From positions 89,959-153,958 of the IMG/VR virus record IMGVR_UViG_3300033066_000778: a DNA stretch of 64,000 nt; one strand, written 5' to 3'. Both the position numbers and the translations under genes were made by a program. Shown one piece after another: positions 2,432 through 64,000 of this stretch (the stretch's first letter is position 1; the number at the start of each line of letters is the position of its first letter). The notes beneath the pieces were generated by a model. The model was not told the DNA's origin. It made no database searches and saw only the letters and a list, made by a program, of their open reading frames with translations. Source of the stretch: a virus (Duplodnaviria > Caudoviricetes).

Positions 2432-3055
2432 ATGACAGAAATTACAGAAGAGTTTATTGCATCTCTTATAGGTCTTCCGTATAAAAGTAAAATATGCGTA
2501 ACATGTAAGCAATGTAAAAAAGAAATTTACAGAACAAAACATGCTATCCTTCGTCGTTACTGGGCAAAAGCTAAGTTGATCTTCTGTGGGGCGACTTGCT
2601 ACGGGTTATTTAACGATAAACGTATTGTACGTACTTGCGTGAACTGCCAGAACAAAACATTTACTCGTTTTTGCTCCCAGTCTTGTTCGGCTATATATAA
2701 TAATATGCATAAGAAAACTGGGCATCGTCGCGCAAAGTTAGAAATCGCTATTGAAAAAAAACTTTTAGAAGCGGGCGTTACCTTTGTATGTAATGACCGA
2801 AAAACTGTTGGGTATGAACTTGATTTTTTCTTTCCTACCTTACGTAAGGCAATTGAAATAAACGGTATTTATCATTACAAGCCAGTACATTCGGAGGCTA
2901 AATTCAAGCGTATACAAGAGATAGATAATGAAAAGATACAACGCTGTGAGAAAGCTAATATTCAATTACTAGTAAAGCCAAATTTATATATTCGTTTTAC
3001 TCCAGAAATAATAGAAAAAACTTGGACAGAGATAAAAGAATTCCTAGATAGATAA
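2432..3055 (+). CDS. putative free-standing endonuclease (Cys-rich Zn repeats + Vsr/DUF559-like PD-(D/E)XK domain)
   Basis: CxxC/FCSxxC repeats, then KLE...YELDFFFP...AIEINGIYHY; lone gene on the opposite strand beside the tRNA cluster. Confidence 0.7.
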   Translation: MTEITEEFIASLIGLPYKSKICVTCKQCKKEIYRTKHAILRRYWAKAKLIFCGATCYGLFNDKRIVRTCVNCQNKTFTRFCSQSCSAIYNNMHKKTGHRRAKLEIAIEKKLLEAGVTFVCNDRKTVGYELDFFFPTLRKAIEINGIYHYKPVHSEAKFKRIQEIDNEKIQRCEKANIQLLVKPNLYIRFTPEIIEKTWTEIKEFLDR

Positions 3056-3140
3056 AAACTTCCGTAAGCGGAATAGACTCTTTTAATTTCATGTGATTTT
3101 ATTTTACTGTTATCTATTCCGCTTACCACTCAATTAAAAT

Positions 3141-3225
3141 TGGTGGGACTGACGCGGTTCGAACGCGTACGACTTTCGTCACGATTTTTTGAGAATCGCG
3201 TGTATTCCGATTCCACCACAGTCCC
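3141..3225 (-). tRNA. tRNA-Leu(CAA)
   Basis: GGGACTG/CAGTCCC acceptor, CTCAAAA loop, long V-arm, TTCGAAC, ACCA end. Confidence 0.92.
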
Positions 3226-3226
3226 A

Positions 3227-3301
3227 TGGAGCGTGTAACAGGATTTGAACCCGTAACCTACAGCTTGGAAGGCTGAGACTCTACCATTGAGTTATACACG
3301 C
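3227..3301 (-). tRNA. tRNA-Gly(TCC)
   Basis: GCGTGTA/TACACGC, CTTCCAA loop, TCCA end. Confidence 0.92.
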
Positions 3302-3309
3302 ATTATAGT

Positions 3310-3495
3310 TGAATGACGATCAGCTAGTACAATACCTGCAAGGGCGGAATGCCCCAGACGTATAATATTACGTTACCATGCTCAAACATCACTAACGAAA
3401 CCAACTAATTCCGGCATAATTATATGCTTAGGCGGCATAGGAATCACCCTACTTCGTCGTATCCGCCTCATGTACTATCCGGTGATTAACCGGCA
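3310..3495 (-). ncRNA. unidentified multibranch structured RNA between tRNAs
   Basis: Closing helix TAGTACA/TGTACTA enclosing GGCGG/CCGCC (with inner TAGG/CCTA), GCATA/TATGC, ACGTA/TACGT and GGGC/GCCC hairpins. Confidence 0.5.
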
Positions 3496-3508
3496 CGTAT
3501 TAAGATAT

Positions 3509-3597
3509 TGGTAAGAGTGGGTGGGGTCGAACCACCATATACCTTGTAAGGGCATCCAGCTTATAAGGCTGGGGCTATACCATTTAGCTACACTCTT
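3509..3597 (-). tRNA. tRNA with TAT anticodon (nominal Ile) and a long variable arm
   Basis: AAGAGTG/CACTCTT, CCAGC-CTTATAA-GCTGG, 19-nt V region, GGTGG-TTCGACC-CCACC, ACCA. Confidence 0.88.
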
Positions 3598-3608
3598 ATA
3601 ATTGAAAA

Positions 3609-3685
3609 TGGCGGGTATGAGGAGATTTGAACTCCCGTTCTCTGACGTGACAGGCCAGCGCTTTTGACCGCTAAGCTACACACCC
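3609..3685 (-). tRNA. tRNA-Asp(GTC)
   Basis: CTGTCAC loop, TTCAAAT T-loop, GCCA end. Confidence 0.92.
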
Positions 3686-3693
3686 GTAAGTAA

Positions 3694-3776
3694 TGGACTA
3701 GGTAGGGTTACTGGCAGTACTTGCTCCCTACTCCTCAAAGTCTGAGTGACCGCGATCATTGAAATCTACTAGTCCA
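3694..3776 (-). ncRNA. tRNA-sized four-way-junction RNA, not a canonical tRNA
   Basis: TGGACTAG/CTAGTCCA terminal stem, three internal hairpins, no TTCGA loop. Confidence 0.45.
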
Positions 3777-3780
3777 AAAT

Positions 3781-3856
3781 TGGCTGGAGCGGAAGGATTC
3801 GAACCTTCATTAGCTGGGTCAGAGCCAGCGTTCCTGACCAATTGAAAGACGCCCCA
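3781..3856 (-). tRNA. tRNA-Gln(CTG)
   Basis: CTCTGAC loop, GAAGG-TTCGAAT-CCTTC, GCCA. Confidence 0.92.
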
Positions 3857-3859
3857 ATA

Positions 3860-4087
3860 TTACCTTGCTATGTCTTTACCCTTTTCATAGATTGAAATTC
3901 CGTCGTTACAGTTACGAGTAGGGCACTTAACTATCATACTTCTTAACCTACCGTTGAAGTACATTACTTGTGTTAATGAAAGTGCTTCTTCCTCGTCTAG
4001 TTCTACTTCACACTTACAGTTATAGCATTTTCCTGCGTAAATAACGTTGACTTTTTTTGGGAGAATGCCTTCTTTAATTATTCGCAT
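3860..4087 (-). CDS. small Zn-ribbon-like protein
   Basis: CYNCKC...CPTRNC. Confidence 0.6.
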   Translation of the reverse strand: MRIIKEGILPKKVNVIYAGKCYNCKCEVELDEEEALSLTQVMYFNGRLRSMIVKCPTRNCNDGISIYEKGKDIAR

Positions 4088-4259
4088 TTCTTTTTCCTAC
4101 TGCGCCAGAAAGCCACAGTCCAAAGTTCCATGCACCAAACATTGCGAATAATGTATGAACGATGTCAACAGCAATCATAGCCATGGTATAGTTTAGGAGA
4201 GTAAGAATGAGTATTGAATACATCAAAATAATTACAACGTAAACTTTTTTATCAGTCAT
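4074..4259 (-). CDS. small membrane protein
   Basis: two hydrophobic segments. Confidence 0.55.
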   Translation of the reverse strand: MTDKKVYVVIILMYSILILTLLNYTMAMIAVDIVHTLFAMFGAWNFGLWLSGAVGKRNANN

Positions 4260-4294
4260 GGTTTTTTTACTATTCCTTACAACAAATACAAAGT

Positions 4295-4384
4295 TGGTGA
4301 AGCGAGTATGATTCGAACATACGATGGGGTTATTAGTCCTACGGGGTTACAGCCCGTTTCCTTCAGCCACTCGGACATCGCTTC
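4295..4384 (-). tRNA. tRNA-Tyr(GTA)
   Basis: GAAGCGA/TCGCTTC, CTGTAAC loop, long V-arm, ACCA. Confidence 0.92.
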
Positions 4385-4417
4385 GTTATATTAAAATGGC
4401 GGGAGAACGAAAATCTT

Positions 4418-4978
4418 CTACTGAGAATTTTCTAATTGTAATAGCTGGTAAATAGCGTAATTACTTTCTATTTTATGCCTACGCCTATGACAATTAGAGC
4501 ACCGAACGTCACACTTAGCAATTTCTTTTTCTACTAATTCCCAAGTACAGTTATTTTTGGCCATACTGGAAATGTTGTACTCTTTATTTCCTTGATGATC
4601 AAATTCTAAGACTAAAGGATCTTTCTCTCCACAGTCAACACAAAAGTGTGTTTTAAAGTAAGCCAAGATATTTTTGTAAATTAAAAATTTACGATTATTA
4701 CTGTAGAGCTTAGCCCTATCAATATATTTAGCTTGATTACGCTTATAGTGTATATTACCCGCTGCGTTTTGACAAGTCTTGCACACATTTTGTATACGCC
4801 CAGACTTACTATCTTTTAAGTTAAAAAATGCCCTGTCAAAGTAGCCTTTACAAGCTAAACAGATTATTTTACCATCTTCTCTTATCCTTGATGCTCGGCG
4901 CTTTTTGCTATTACATTCTCTGCAAGACTGTGCTCTTTTACTTTTTTCTTTAGTGCATATCGGACATATATTATTCAT
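4418..4978 (-). CDS. HNH endonuclease inserted in the tRNA cluster
   Basis: CVDCGEKDPLVLEFDH...CDVRCSNCHRRRH; own TTGACA-17-TACATT promoter with the -10 box only 7 nt before the ATG. Confidence 0.8.
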   Translation of the reverse strand: MNNICPICTKEKSKRAQSCRECNSKKRRASRIREDGKIICLACKGYFDRAFFNLKDSKSGRIQNVCKTCQNAAGNIHYKRNQAKYIDRAKLYSNNRKFLIYKNILAYFKTHFCVDCGEKDPLVLEFDHQGNKEYNISSMAKNNCTWELVEKEIAKCDVRCSNCHRRRHKIESNYAIYQLLQLENSQ

Positions 4979-5012
4979 ACAAAATAATGTACACTAAAAA
5001 AAGCAAAATGTC

Positions 5013-5054
5013 AAGGCAGTCTCTAAAATCATATAAAGTTTTAGAGACTGCCTT
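5013..5054. terminator. long perfect hairpin inside the tRNA operon
   Basis: aaggcagtctctaaaa / ttttagagactgcctt. Confidence 0.5.
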
Positions 5055-5061
5055 TCTAATA

Positions 5062-5136
5062 TGGCTCGGTTGGTAGGAATTGAACCTACGACAGTTCGAT
5101 TAACAGTCGAACACTCTACCACTGAGTTACAACCGA
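5062..5136 (-). tRNA. tRNA-Asn(GTT)
   Basis: TCGGTTG/CAACCGA, CTGTTAA loop, GCCA. Confidence 0.93.
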
Positions 5137-5144
5137 ATGAAACT

Positions 5145-5219
5145 TGGAGCACTGAAGTCGATTCGAACGACTGAATAGCAGGGTTGCAATCTGCCCTCTT
5201 ACCACTTGAGTATCAGTGC
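5145..5219 (-). tRNA. tRNA-Cys(GCA)
   Basis: GCACTGA/TCAGTGC, TTGCAAC loop, TCCA. Confidence 0.92.
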
Positions 5220-5230
5220 GTTATTTGAAA

Positions 5231-5309
5231 TGGGACCGGGAACTGGATTTGAACCAGTGATCTCTAGCTTATGAGGCTAGCGTGGTAGACCAGACTGCAC
5301 CATCCCGGT
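5231..5309 (-). tRNA. tRNA-Met(CAT) (initiator-like D-arm, C73 discriminator)
   Basis: ACCGGGA/TCCCGGT, CTCATAA loop, CCCA end; lacks the three G-C anticodon-stem pairs of typical initiators. Confidence 0.85.
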
Positions 5310-23801: not shown

Positions 23802-24066
23802 GACTCAAATAATAGATATTAGCACATTGTTTAGAACAGAAGTATAGTCTACCCGAAGCATCACGTAAATGTCGTAAAGTATCAGGAATCCAGTAATTCT
23901 TAACCAAGGAAGTTTTAACCGTCATCTTAATACTGTAATTACAACCGAACTTGGAGCAGGTTAAACAACTATACTCCCTTACCTTCCCTTTTCGGGGAAC
24001 GCTGTAATGAGTGGTTGTTATCGTTTCGGTTTTATAATCCGTAATCATGTGAAAAGGTCTAGTCAT
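23794..24066 (-). CDS. Zn-finger array member (first gene of the array)
   Basis: CLTC...FCSKQCANIYYL. Confidence 0.72.
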   Translation of the reverse strand: MTRPFHMITDYKTETITTTHYSVPRKGKVREYSCLTCSKFGCNYSIKMTVKTSLVKNYWIPDTLRHLRDASGRLYFCSKQCANIYYLSHA

Positions 24067-24081
24067 CGCTCATAAATATAT

Positions 24082-24118
24082 ACCTGGGATTGTTAGTATT
24101 CCAGGTTTTTTTGTTTTT
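24082..24118 (+). terminator. intrinsic terminator at the strand switch
   Basis: acctggga/ttccaggt hairpin followed by a T-tract. Confidence 0.55.
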
Positions 24119-24237
24119 ATCCTTTTAGCCCCTTGCTGCCCCCGAAGACCCCATACGCCCATTAACCCCTTTAATTACTTTTATATATCGCTTTTTAACT
24201 TGATTTCTAAAAACGACTCGTTAGGGGAAATGACCCG

Positions 24238-24266
24238 TTGACATCTGGGCATAGGGGGTAGCTAAT
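24238..24266 (+). promoter_or_regulatory. putative sigma70-type promoter of the GC-rich block
   Basis: TTGACA-17-GCTAAT; first hairpin begins at 24273. Confidence 0.5.
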
Positions 24267-24272
24267 TCATTG

Positions 24273-24800
24273 TCCCGGCGAACCGGGAGAGCAAGGGGCA
24301 GGTGTAGGTCACGGGCGGTTGAGAGGCCGTCTAGGGCTGACCCTGCCCAACACTGGCTCGCGCCACGATGAGGCGACAATCGTAGGCGCAGGATGTGTGT
24401 GTAAGTAAACCATCCGCCAGAACCCCCTTCCCAACATTGGAGGGGACTCTCTCTTCGCGGAGGTTAACAATCCGCGTAGTGACCCTAGCACAGATAGCGC
24501 CGGTATGGACTCACCGAACACCGTATGGTGAGGAAGTATCGGAGGTGACTAAAGGTAGTGTAAAGGTAGCACCTTACACTAGCGGTTCGTGGGGACTCCG
24601 AAACCCCAAATAACAAAAGGTTTTCTTTTTCAATGTCCTATCACCCGATGGGGCGGTTAAGAACGCAGTGGTTTCAAGACCACAGTGTCATGCGTTCGAC
24701 CATTGGGTGATAGGCTCACTCCAGGTAGCGTAACACAGCGACGCCGTGCGATGGCGGGGGGACATAGACTAGCGACCTATGTCCCCTTTGTTGCGACGGG
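24273..24800 (+). ncRNA. large GC-rich structured RNA / leader of unknown class
   Basis: At least 10 helices, e.g. tcccgg/ccggga, gggcag/ctgccc, ctggc/gccag, ccccttcc/ggagggg, cgcgga/tccgcg, tagtgtaa/ttacacta, cctatcacccgatgg/ccattgggtgatagg, ggggacatag/ctatgtcccc; no credible ORF. Confidence 0.65.
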
Positions 24801-24802
24801 AG

Positions 24803-24860
24803 GATGGGACGAAACAGAGTTCGCCTGTATGGCTTTGAAAAGCCACTGATGAGTCCCGTC
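24803..24860 (+). ncRNA. hammerhead ribozyme, type II
   Basis: GATGGGAC-GAAA-CAG[agttcgc]CTG-TA^-TGGCT[ttgaaa]AGCCA-CTGATGA-GTCCCGTC; complete core; predicted cleavage after A24829 (GUA). Confidence 0.92.
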
Positions 24861-24887
24861 ATCAGACTGAAACGCAAGGAGGTTCCC

Positions 24888-25316
24888 ATGCGGAACCGCG
24901 CTTCCCTCATTGACCTGAACATCCTCGTGTCCTCCATCCCCGTGTCCGCCCCCGAGACCCGGCAGGGCCGGGTCTTCGCCGCCGCCTGGGCGAAGGCGGA
25001 CGCGGCCTGCGTGGCGAGGCTGAAGGCGCGGCGGGCCGAGATCTCCGCCGCGTGGGCGGAGAAGGAGCGGGCTGAGAAGAAGGAGCGGATCGCCGCCATC
25101 CAGGCGGCGAAGGACCGCGCTGAGGCGCGGCGGGCCGAGGCCCGGAAGGTCGGGGCGGCCCGGCTGCTGAAGGCCGAGATGGAGAGGCAGGAGGCACTCG
25201 CCCGCATCGAGGCGGGCGGGCTGCTCGATGCCATGAAGGGCAAGATCTCGGAGCCGGACGGCATCCGGCTCACCAAGGAGTTGGCGGACATGTTCGCCGC
25301 CTTCGGGGAGATCTGA
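24888..25316 (+). CDS. Ala/Arg/Glu-rich helical protein, first gene after the ribozyme
   Basis: AAGGAGG RBS, ATG at 24888 (not 24804); very high GC. Confidence 0.75.
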   Translation: MRNRASLIDLNILVSSIPVSAPETRQGRVFAAAWAKADAACVARLKARRAEISAAWAEKERAEKKERIAAIQAAKDRAEARRAEARKVGAARLLKAEMERQEALARIEAGGLLDAMKGKISEPDGIRLTKELADMFAAFGEI

Positions 25317-26405: not shown

Positions 26406-26488
26406 TCGGAGTGTCTGAGACATTCCACGAATTCAACCGCTGGTTTGACGAACTAGTCAACCAGATCAACAGAAAGAAGGAGTCTAAC

Positions 26489-26929
26489 ATGACGAAGATC
26501 AACACCCCCGCGATCGGCCACGGACCCGTCAGCCGCATCCCGCTCCCGGTCAAGGCCGGTGAGCACGTCGATCTCGATTTCTGGAGGATGCTGGGTGACC
26601 CGGCATTCGAGGGGGTGACCTTCCGGGTCCAGCGTGGGCTTCCGAGCGGATTCGAGGGGCCTGTGGCCGAGGCCCTGAAGGTGATCTACGGGAAGAAGAT
26701 TGACGACACCTTCTTCCTGTCGATCTGGGCGGGTGAGGTGAAGCGGGAAGGAAAGACCCGCAAGAACGTCAACCTGAAGAAGGCTTCGACGGGAACTCCG
26801 ACTGACCTTCCGGGTGTTGGGGCCATCCCTGTTGGGTACGGGGAGCACGACATCAGAATCCTCCTTCGCTGCATGTTGAGCGCGAAGGTTACGAACGACG
26901 ATAAGAAGAACGATCAAGTCAACTTCTAA
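26489..26929 (+). CDS. hypothetical protein, paralog of 27272..27655
   Basis: AAGGAG RBS; VQRGLP...FFLSIW...NF*. Confidence 0.7.
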   Translation: MTKINTPAIGHGPVSRIPLPVKAGEHVDLDFWRMLGDPAFEGVTFRVQRGLPSGFEGPVAEALKVIYGKKIDDTFFLSIWAGEVKREGKTRKNVNLKKASTGTPTDLPGVGAIPVGYGEHDIRILLRCMLSAKVTNDDKKNDQVNF

Positions 26930-27271: not shown

Positions 27272-27655
27272 ATGAACCAGACCAACATCGACACCAACAC
27301 CGCCGAGGGCTTCATCAACAAGCTGACCGCTCAGGGTCAGTACGATTACTTCCGCCTTCACCGCTTCGCCGGTCACAACACCTTCGGGGGAACGCTGATC
27401 AAGGTTCAGCGGGGTGTCCCCGAACAGTACAAGGCCAACTTCCCCGATTGTCAGGACAGGTACTTCCTGTCGATCTGGAAGTACACCGAAGTGGCAGGGA
27501 ACGTCACCCTCACCACGAGACTGTCGAAGGAGACGATGCACTTCGACAAGGACACGGCTGTCCTCATGCTCAAGCTGATGGGCCTGAAGTGGGGAGGCAT
27601 CGTGGCATCGAAGCACAACCCCGTCAACACCCCGAAGGCCAACAACAACTTCTAA
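27272..27655 (+). CDS. hypothetical protein, paralog of 26489..26929
   Basis: AAGGAGG RBS; VQRGVP...YFLSIW...NF*. Confidence 0.75.
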   Translation: MNQTNIDTNTAEGFINKLTAQGQYDYFRLHRFAGHNTFGGTLIKVQRGVPEQYKANFPDCQDRYFLSIWKYTEVAGNVTLTTRLSKETMHFDKDTAVLMLKLMGLKWGGIVASKHNPVNTPKANNNF

Positions 27656-63133: not shown

Positions 63134-64000
63134 TTAGGATCCGCATGATCCCCCTTTAGTAAGGTCACAGACATCTGTGAATTCGTAGAATACCTCATCC
63201 TGGTGCTTAAGGGCTGTACTGAAGCGAACAGGAGTAAGGGGTTGACCTCCCCTCGCGCCATCGGGATAGCATGTAATTCCTCTTAGTCTTGGTAGATACT
63301 TCATTAGCATGATACCAAAAGACTGAACAGTACTTTCATTATTGAGTGGATGACCCCAATGCGGAAGGTTAATCGTAGAGCTAATGGAATGATCTACGTA
63401 CTCTTGAACGTGAGCCTGGAAGGATAGTCTACGCTCAACATCCTCAGCGAGGTTATAAGCATCTTCAATACTATCTGGATTAACACCCTTTTCAACAAGA
63501 CGTTTAGCTGTGGGATCAATGACGTATTGGAAGGCATTCATGTCGGAGCCCTTCTTGTAACGCCGCTTGTAAGCAGCACAGAACACCGGCTCGATACCTG
63601 TTGTTGTTTCCGCGATGATACCAATCGTTCCTGTTGGTGCGATAGCACGAGTCTTTACTGGACAGGAGAGATCGTACATCTTGGAGTACTGTAAAGCGTA
63701 ATCACCACTTTGAGCATAGACCTTAAGGTACTCATCTAACTCAGTATCAGCGCCGTATTTCTTTCCTCTTAAAAGTAGCCATTCATGGATACCCATAAGG
63801 CCGAGGCCGAGACGACGATTCTTAGAACGAATTTGGTCTACCTTGGCGTAAGGAACATCGGAGTAAACTGTACCAGCAAGTAGAAATAGTGTTCCGAGTT
63901 CGACGACGCGCTTCATTTCTTCCAACGAGCCAATACGCGCAAGGTTAATTGATCCTAGATTACAGATGTCAGAATCGTCAGCAGAGGATACTTCCGTACA
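63134..64000 (-). CDS. nrdJ: class II (B12-dependent) ribonucleotide reductase, C-terminal part
   Basis: DICNLGSIN, RRLGLGLMG, AIAPTGTI, DHSISSTINLP, RGITCYPDG, C-terminal CxxxxxxxC. Confidence 0.9.
   Translation of the reverse strand, partial: CTEVSSADDSDICNLGSINLARIGSLEEMKRVVELGTLFLLAGTVYSDVPYAKVDQIRSKNRRLGLGLMGIHEWLLLRGKKYGADTELDEYLKVYAQSGDYALQYSKMYDLSCPVKTRAIAPTGTIGIIAETTTGIEPVFCAAYKRRYKKGSDMNAFQYVIDPTAKRLVEKGVNPDSIEDAYNLAEDVERRLSFQAHVQEYVDHSISSTINLPHWGHPLNNESTVQSFGIMLMKYLPRLRGITCYPDGARGGQPLTPVRFSTALKHQDEVFYEFTDVCDLTKGGSCGS

Follow-up and report, generated by a model that had tools for sequence, protein, structure and literature searches.

The closest described relatives of the ribozyme reported here are the type II hammerheads of bacteria and prophages (PMC3088659; RF02276), which share its core, its circular permutation with an open stem II and the GUC/GAC closure of that stem, and which likewise lie just before gene starts in phage DNA. 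A pseudoknot between loop I and the 3' tail, present in the majority of RF02276 members, has been described as critical for fast cleavage, and tertiary contacts are needed for fast cleavage at physiological Mg2+; many natural hammerheads have no recognizable tertiary contacts (PMC3088659). In a hammerhead of the pseudoknot type, a stem II that was longer by a single pair reduced activity (PMC3088659). Another close parallel is HHphage of the haloviruses HF1 and HF2, a hammerhead that also lies just upstream of the first open reading frame of a multigene phage transcript, and in which the mapped 5' end of an early transcript falls within 3 nt of the cleavage site (PMC3088659). Phage hammerheads have been proposed to cut long transcripts into messages of gene length (PMC3088659, PMC6765202), and a 2019 review states that the purpose of bacterial and phage hammerheads remains to be defined (PMC6765202).

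Here, we analyze a type II hammerhead from an uncultivated virus whose record spans 153,958 bp; the final 64,000 nucleotides of that record contain the ribozyme and are referred to as the window. Compared with the bacterial and prophage type II hammerheads, the present ribozyme has a stem II of 8 pairs (versus 3 to 5), a stem III of 4 pairs and no pseudoknot between loop I and the 3' tail, it carries GUA in place of the usual GUC, it occurs as a single copy and not in an array, and it falls below the Rfam thresholds. HHphage differs in having a variant core and an archaeal halophile host. The ribozyme is of a kind that is already known and is common in phages, and the present copy is real and unusually built.

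Results

The leader of the first GC-rich gene contains a complete type II hammerhead

A complete type II hammerhead with the full consensus was read directly from the sequence at 24803-24860 on the + strand (Table 1). The motif coincides with a strand switch and with the beginning of a GC-rich island (GC content of 0.53 to 0.62 versus about 0.38), and it is part of the leader of the first rightward GC-rich gene, an open reading frame at 24888-25316 (+) that encodes a 142-aa protein. Its strands follow one another in the order of the type II permutation, namely, the 3' strand of stem II, GAAA, hairpin III, the cut site, hairpin I, the core, and the 5' strand of stem II. Stem II comprises 8 pairs, including one U.G wobble (U24805.G24858), and since its ends are open the topology is type II; on the opposite strand the wobble would become an A.C mismatch, which marks the + strand as the folding strand. 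The conserved hammerhead core is present throughout, with CUGAUGA at 24846-24852, GAA at 24811-24813, and GUA as the N-U-H triplet at 24827-24829, and the core-closing pairs are all standard (G24853-C24810, 10.1-11.1; U24830-A24845, 1.1-2.1; A24814-U24828, 15.1-16.1). With its full core and no adjoining mispair, the candidate is a hammerhead by the acceptance rules of Perreault et al. 2011 (PMC3088659).

Every element listed in the original prediction, which had placed a complete type II hammerhead directly upstream of the first GC-rich gene, was recovered where it had been located, and the coordinates given there for both competing pairings, the Shine-Dalgarno sequence, and the ATG also proved exact when the sequence was read. 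The ATG at 24804 was ruled out as a true gene start because a 1-nt indel in the related contig L100 (described below) breaks the frame.

Table 1. Coordinates of the hammerhead, its competing elements, and the flanking features of the leader
Feature	Position in window	Strand	Details and basis
Body of the large structured noncoding RNA	24270-24757	+	Fold z-score -7.25 for 24270-24795
Terminator-like hairpin, 10 pairs, 9-nt loop, then UUUGUUG	24758-24793	+	Folding; 10 nt before ribozyme
Upstream decoy GACGGGA	24795-24801	+	Perfect 7-nt complement of UCCCGUC 24854-24860; in predicted minimum-energy fold of longer constructs
Stem II, 3' strand GAUGGGAC (11.8-11.1)	24803-24810	+	Pairs with 24853-24860; sequence reading and descriptor scan
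GAAA, conserved G12 A13 A14 and A15.1	24811-24814	+	Aligns with invariant GAAA of model R1
Stem III hairpin ACAG / loop AGUUCGC / CUGU, 4 pairs	24814-24828	+	ACAG 24814-24817, CUGU 24825-24828; descriptor scan
Predicted cleavage site, after A17 = 24829 (GUA triplet 24827-24829), before U1.1 = 24830	24829-24830	+	Hammerhead numbering
Stem I hairpin UGGCUU-UGAA-AAGCCA, 6 pairs, UGAA loop	24830-24845	+	Sequence reading, descriptor scan, and folding
Catalytic core C3-A9, CUGAUGA	24846-24852	+	Sequence reading; aligned to model R1
Stem II, 5' strand GUCCCGUC (10.1-10.8)	24853-24860	+	Sequence reading and descriptor scan
Core-masking tail UCAUCAG	24859-24865	+	Perfect 7-nt complement of CUGAUGA 24846-24852
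Shine-Dalgarno AAGGAGG (24876-24882) and ATG (24888) of first GC-rich gene	24876-24890	+	Sequence reading

The motif is not random

In a descriptor scan of both strands of the 153,958-bp genome, the motif was the sole strong hammerhead match. Among 300 Markov shuffles of the genome, which keep the local dinucleotide content, none reached the motif's 19 stem pairs (the maximum was 17), one had stems of at least 5, 6, and 4 pairs, and loose matches arose at 0.22 per shuffled genome. The motif is non-random. A second hammerhead-like match, of type III, at the very end of the contig (window positions ~63870-63998 on the - strand; stems of 4, 7, and 3 pairs) was rejected as a hammerhead, as it is within the range of the shuffled genomes and is not called by Rfam.

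Viral contigs were scanned with a pattern made from the candidate's own core (GAC-GAAAC ... GUA or GUC ... CUGAUGA-GUC), and the scans returned 98 and at least 120 loci. Well-formed hammerheads, in which stems I and III vary, account for 191 of the 199 distinct matches (96%), so that a match to this pattern in a phage is almost always a real, evolved ribozyme. Stems I and III covary in a 73-sequence alignment of phage type II hammerheads. A covariance model of 73 fetched phage type II hammerheads (model R1), none of them from the present genome, scored the site at 39.6 bits (E 2.7e-8), its only match in the window and in the whole 154-kb genome, although part of this score is circular because the training sequences were selected by a pattern from the candidate's own core. 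The copy in L100 scored 43.2 bits with the same model.

An Infernal search with the Rfam hammerhead models, which had been proposed as a check, did not return any model at threshold. A search of 801 nt at the gathering score gave no hammerhead match; in E-value mode, only the type III model RF00008 aligned to the 801 nt, at 15.2 bits versus a threshold of 48.5, and nothing was reported for the 73-nt unit alone. The candidate is below every Rfam hammerhead threshold, including the gathering criterion of RF02276. The type III fold aligned by RF00008 was itself ruled out, as it depends on a second GAAAC (24869) and on a stem III of only 3 pairs, which is very weak.

Comparison with other phage type II hammerheads

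Our comparator set consists of 197 distinct phage type II hammerheads fetched from viral contigs. A start codon with a Shine-Dalgarno-like motif lies at most 60 nt downstream in 82% of the comparators versus 19% of shuffled tails, and the succession of ribozyme, Shine-Dalgarno sequence, and start codon to which the original prediction had drawn attention is thus the norm for phage type II hammerheads. The distance from ribozyme to start is 32 nt here, 5 of which are due to the longer stem II, compared with a comparator median of 24 nt. Where the present stem II has 8 pairs, all 197 comparators have 3 to 5; its stem III, with 4 pairs, is at the short extreme of a set in which 6 to 8 pairs predominate, and its cleavage triplet ends in A, as do those of 23 comparators, the other 174 ending in C. 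[quoted passage not shown] Cleavage in vitro has been reported for 14 of 18 consensus hammerheads (PMC3088659), and in view of the odd stem lengths and of the tertiary contact that is not apparent here, we set our estimate of activity below that proportion. At least two type II hammerheads lie close together in 35 of the 202 fetched viral loci, and at least three in 8 of the 202 (examples of such loci are L103, L004, L131, and L159).

The core-masking tail overlaps the last two pairs of the long stem II and can form with the core a hairpin (24846-24852 with 24859-24865) of 7 pairs and a 6-nt loop, with a predicted energy of -7.9 kcal/mol. The 6-nt complement CAUCAG of the core word CUGAUG stands just 3' of stem II in 38 of the 197 comparators, versus about 0.9 expected from permuted core words, and the sequestering of the core by UCAUCAG that had been noticed at this locus therefore belongs to a recurrent class. 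These 38 tail-bearing comparators form 10 clusters at 70% identity, the spacing between core and tail varies among them, and one has a hairpin inserted between the two. No comparator exceeds 6 nt, and the 7-nt tail here is the longest. The present locus resembles this self-masking-tail subclass (CUGAUGAGUCC-AUCAG) in that a perfect core complement directly follows stem II and is followed in turn by a Shine-Dalgarno sequence and a start codon, but it differs in its 7-nt complement, in the overlap with stem II, in the 6-nt loop, and in the upstream decoy, which has no parallel in the comparators. We found no description of the subclass in PMC3088659 or PMC6765202. Loop I of hammerheads in the self-masking class often holds part of the core word (UGAUG, AUGA, or AUG), which would give the tail two possible partners in this class, loop I and the core.

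Competing folds and predicted product release

The upstream decoy offers a second competing pairing, with a predicted duplex strength of -11.4 kcal/mol versus -12.3 kcal/mol for the true stem II. For the 58-nt unit, the predicted minimum and the ribozyme fold differ by no more than 0.1 kcal/mol; once the flanks are added, the predicted minimum combines a local hairpin at 24804-24828 with either the decoy or the masking hairpin, and the ribozyme fold makes up 1 to 10% of the predicted ensemble, all of these energies being from nearest-neighbor models that ignore tertiary structure, including the stabilization of the hammerhead core. A penalty on the ribozyme fold that was equal or larger arose in 8% of shuffles of both flanks and in 19% of shuffles of the 5' flank only, and upstream decoys are not enriched among the 197 comparators. 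The pairing proposed for GACGGGA is present as a perfect complement, but it has no counterpart in the 197 comparators, and the suggestion that cleavage is "switchable" remains conjecture, as the native flanks are not significantly worse than shuffled ones. A long-range helix that would hide the Shine-Dalgarno sequence (UUGCG/CGCAA) was ruled out because L100 alters its 3' partner without compensation.

Cofolding of the refolded cleavage products, in which the masking hairpin is predicted to form in the 3' product and alternative hairpins in the 5' product, gave a net predicted binding of only about -4.8 kcal/mol, and the products should therefore separate. Without such refolding, the 8-pair stem II would be expected to hold them together much more tightly. 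Two hairpins are predicted at the 5' terminus of the 3' product, in keeping with the earlier idea of an mRNA led by a double hairpin.

Relatives of the locus

One homologue of the 142-aa protein, with 85% identity, was found in a large protein collection, and it is encoded on a 1,212-bp metagenome contig (L100). Identity with L100 is 94.3% in the noncoding block at about 24237-24887, 83.5% in the adjoining coding sequence, and 56% in the DNA that lies further upstream; differences in the 142-aa gene number 21, 16, and 37 at the three codon positions, an excess at the third. The 58-nt ribozyme has a single change in L100, A24818G, which adds a fifth (G-C) pair to stem III. L100 is the only motif-bearing relative and is near-identical, and there is no covariation for the present copy. 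The competing elements, including the decoy and the masking tail, are unchanged in L100, and the linker between the masking tail and the Shine-Dalgarno sequence differs, including the 1-nt indel, which indicates that the leader is noncoding.

A more distant phage contig, L101, encodes a MYG1 protein that is 73% identical and has the same locus layout, with small leftward genes, a 770-nt gap containing a GC-rich, RNA-like stretch, and then rightward genes. The conserved box AAAAACGACUCGU and a GGUUUCAAGACC hairpin are common to L101 and the window. Searches with model R1 found no hammerhead in L101 or in L102, a 167-kb phage-like contig that also carries a MYG1 homologue. Since L101 has the same layout without a hammerhead, the ribozyme is dispensable for the layout and is an addition in one lineage rather than a constant component of the locus.

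Public phage records contained no DNA match, scans of viral contigs guided by two proteins, the 142-aa protein and MYG1, returned no relatives, a metagenome scan with a geometry-matched hammerhead pattern gave 0 matches, and the promoter-proximal conserved box had 0 matches in viral contigs. Two metagenome matches to this box were unrelated on reading, and a distant MYG1 homologue (P0016) was set aside for its cellular context.

The large RNA and the gene block

The large structured RNA that precedes the ribozyme has no Rfam family in either gathering or E-value mode, blastn and nhmmer searches of the other fetched hammerhead loci matched only the RNA itself and L100, and no tRNA or tmRNA was found in 24000-25000. 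A partly similar GC-rich stretch is present at its place in L101. With the terminator-like hairpin standing 10 nt upstream of the ribozyme, read-through transcripts may be few. The loop of this hairpin, ACUAGCGAC (24768-24776), is the exact reverse complement in L100 and the stem is kept, which amounts to a hairpin-loop inversion.

A box, AAAAACGACTCGT...GG.AAATG, lies upstream of the large RNA at 24208-24232 in the window and at 2855-2880 in L101, where three AT-rich repeats of ~60 nt lie in tandem and the box stands at the end of the third, and it is also conserved in L100. It may be a phage-specific promoter or operator. Hairpins with UUUCAAG(A/G) loops occur at 24669-24690 in the window, within the large RNA, and several times in L101 (at about 3020-3070 and 3300-3330), and they may represent a shared binding site.

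Downstream of the 142-aa gene is a gene for a MYG1-family hydrolase (E 9.7e-75), and the further genes in the GC-rich block gave no family matches. Two of these family-less open reading frames, 26411-26929 and 27272-27655 (+), are distantly paralogous, with 26% identity across 81 aa (E 1e-6) and the common motif VQRG.P ... F(F/Y)LSIW. Within positions 5137-8372 of L102, three tRNA genes lie on the flanks of the MYG1 homologue, which is followed by a gene with PolyA_pol and HD domains like those of CCA-adding enzymes, a context that hints at an action of phage MYG1 on RNA ends. Nine tRNA genes are clustered in the window at 3144-5309 (-).

Discussion

Taking as established that the motif is present and non-random, that it resembles many phage hammerheads, and that the masking tail recurs, we think it probable that this is a genuine, evolved type II hammerhead, that read-through transcripts cut themselves and so free the structured RNA from the mRNA, and that the tail aids the release of the products. 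Transcripts would start near 24240-24270, pass the hairpin at 24758-24793, and fold the three-helix junction, and self-cleavage would then occur between A24829 and U24830. The 5' product would be the structured RNA of ~520 nt with a short tail ending in a 2',3'-cyclic phosphate, and the 3' product would be an mRNA that begins with a 5'-OH and has the stem I hairpin first. In this 3' product, UCAUCAG would fold back on CUGAUGA, so that the long stem II dissolves and the products part, and the masking hairpin would remain as a second 5' hairpin ahead of the ribosome-binding site. Cleavage itself, its extent in vivo, the order of these events, and any effect on mRNA stability or translation are inferred. 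Self-cutting of read-through transcripts at 24829/24830 is the most likely course, and it would agree with both the published processing proposal and the case of the haloviruses HF1 and HF2.

The competing folds could also be taken to mean that the ribozyme is bistable and regulated, with the decoy, the hairpin at 24804-24828, and the masking tail keeping most transcripts inactive, and with cleavage and the separation of RNA and mRNA occurring only when a factor, the speed of transcription, or temperature tips the balance. The use of decoy or mask in the minimum-energy folds of longer constructs, with 1 to 10% of the ensemble left to the ribozyme fold, the near equality of decoy and stem II, the masking tail in a fifth of phage type II hammerheads, and the invariance of all competing elements in L100 are consistent with such regulation, but shuffled flanks are as unfavorable in 8% (both flanks) or 19% (5' flank only) of trials, upstream decoys are not enriched in the comparators, the energy model omits the tertiary stabilization of the core, no ligand- or protein-binding element is evident, and L100 is too close for its conservation to be informative, so that we regard this as unlikely. 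That the ribozyme is a relic or a feeble enzyme, descended from a hammerhead but made too slow to matter in vivo by missing tertiary contacts, an over-long stem II, and competing folds, and with a core left intact by recent origin and not by selection, strikes us as quite unlikely. A pseudoknot is not evident, stem II is beyond the comparator range, one extra stem II pair lowered activity in a pseudoknot-type hammerhead (PMC3088659), the candidate is below the Rfam thresholds, and its conservation in L100 (1 change versus about 3.3 expected) is not significantly above that of the surrounding noncoding block; however, the core and all three closing pairs are perfect, the sole L100 substitution strengthens stem III, the 7-nt tail is longer than that of any comparator and fits co-adaptation to the long stem II, and natural hammerheads without recognizable tertiary contacts are many (PMC3088659). 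That a GC-rich structured leader matches the hammerhead consensus by chance is barely credible: although the motif is short and not called by Rfam, and although very many windows were read, so that rare chance matches are expected somewhere, its pairing is reached in none of the 300 shuffles, 96% of core-pattern sequences in viral contigs are well-formed hammerheads, and the position before the Shine-Dalgarno sequence and ATG and the class-specific masking tail are both independent of the definition of the motif.

A different view of what was selected is that the ribozyme serves to form the 3' end of the large RNA rather than to shape the mRNA, in which case the cyclic-phosphate end would be trimmed as far as the hairpin (24758-24786), perhaps by the exonuclease of the MYG1 family whose gene lies two genes downstream. 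The ribozyme is directly 3' of a structured and conserved RNA (z-score of -7.25; 94% identity in L100), the MYG1 gene (E 9.7e-75) is in the same block, and the L102 MYG1 gene, among tRNA genes and beside the PolyA_pol/HD gene, points to RNA-end metabolism. We nevertheless find this function improbable, since L101 has a related RNA and MYG1 without a hammerhead, the hairpin and its U-tract could form a 3' end without a ribozyme, and the position relative to the Shine-Dalgarno sequence and start codon fits the general mRNA-leader habit of phage type II hammerheads. Very doubtful, in our view, is a throttled gate in which the decoy and the tail set the rate of cutting, the cut matures a previously undescribed RNA of ~520 nt and releases the mRNA of an early block, and MYG1 trims the end; if it were true, the locus would be a self-contained RNA-processing module.

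RiboJ is an engineered insulator part based on a plant satellite-RNA hammerhead. Insulators of the RiboJ type place a hammerhead and a hairpin before the ribosome-binding site, and the mRNA then starts at a fixed 5'-OH end whatever lies upstream. The present locus likewise has a hammerhead and then a hairpin between the upstream part of the transcript and the ribosome-binding site, and by analogy it may have a natural insulating function.

The present copy also shows that well-formed phage hammerheads fall below the Rfam thresholds, and annotation pipelines consequently undercount them. This locus provides a clean test case, in which one ribozyme is flanked by a large structured RNA and the first gene of a block, and because its stem II is exaggerated and its tail can mask the full 7 nt of the core, simple mutants can separate the roles of these two elements in product release or in control.
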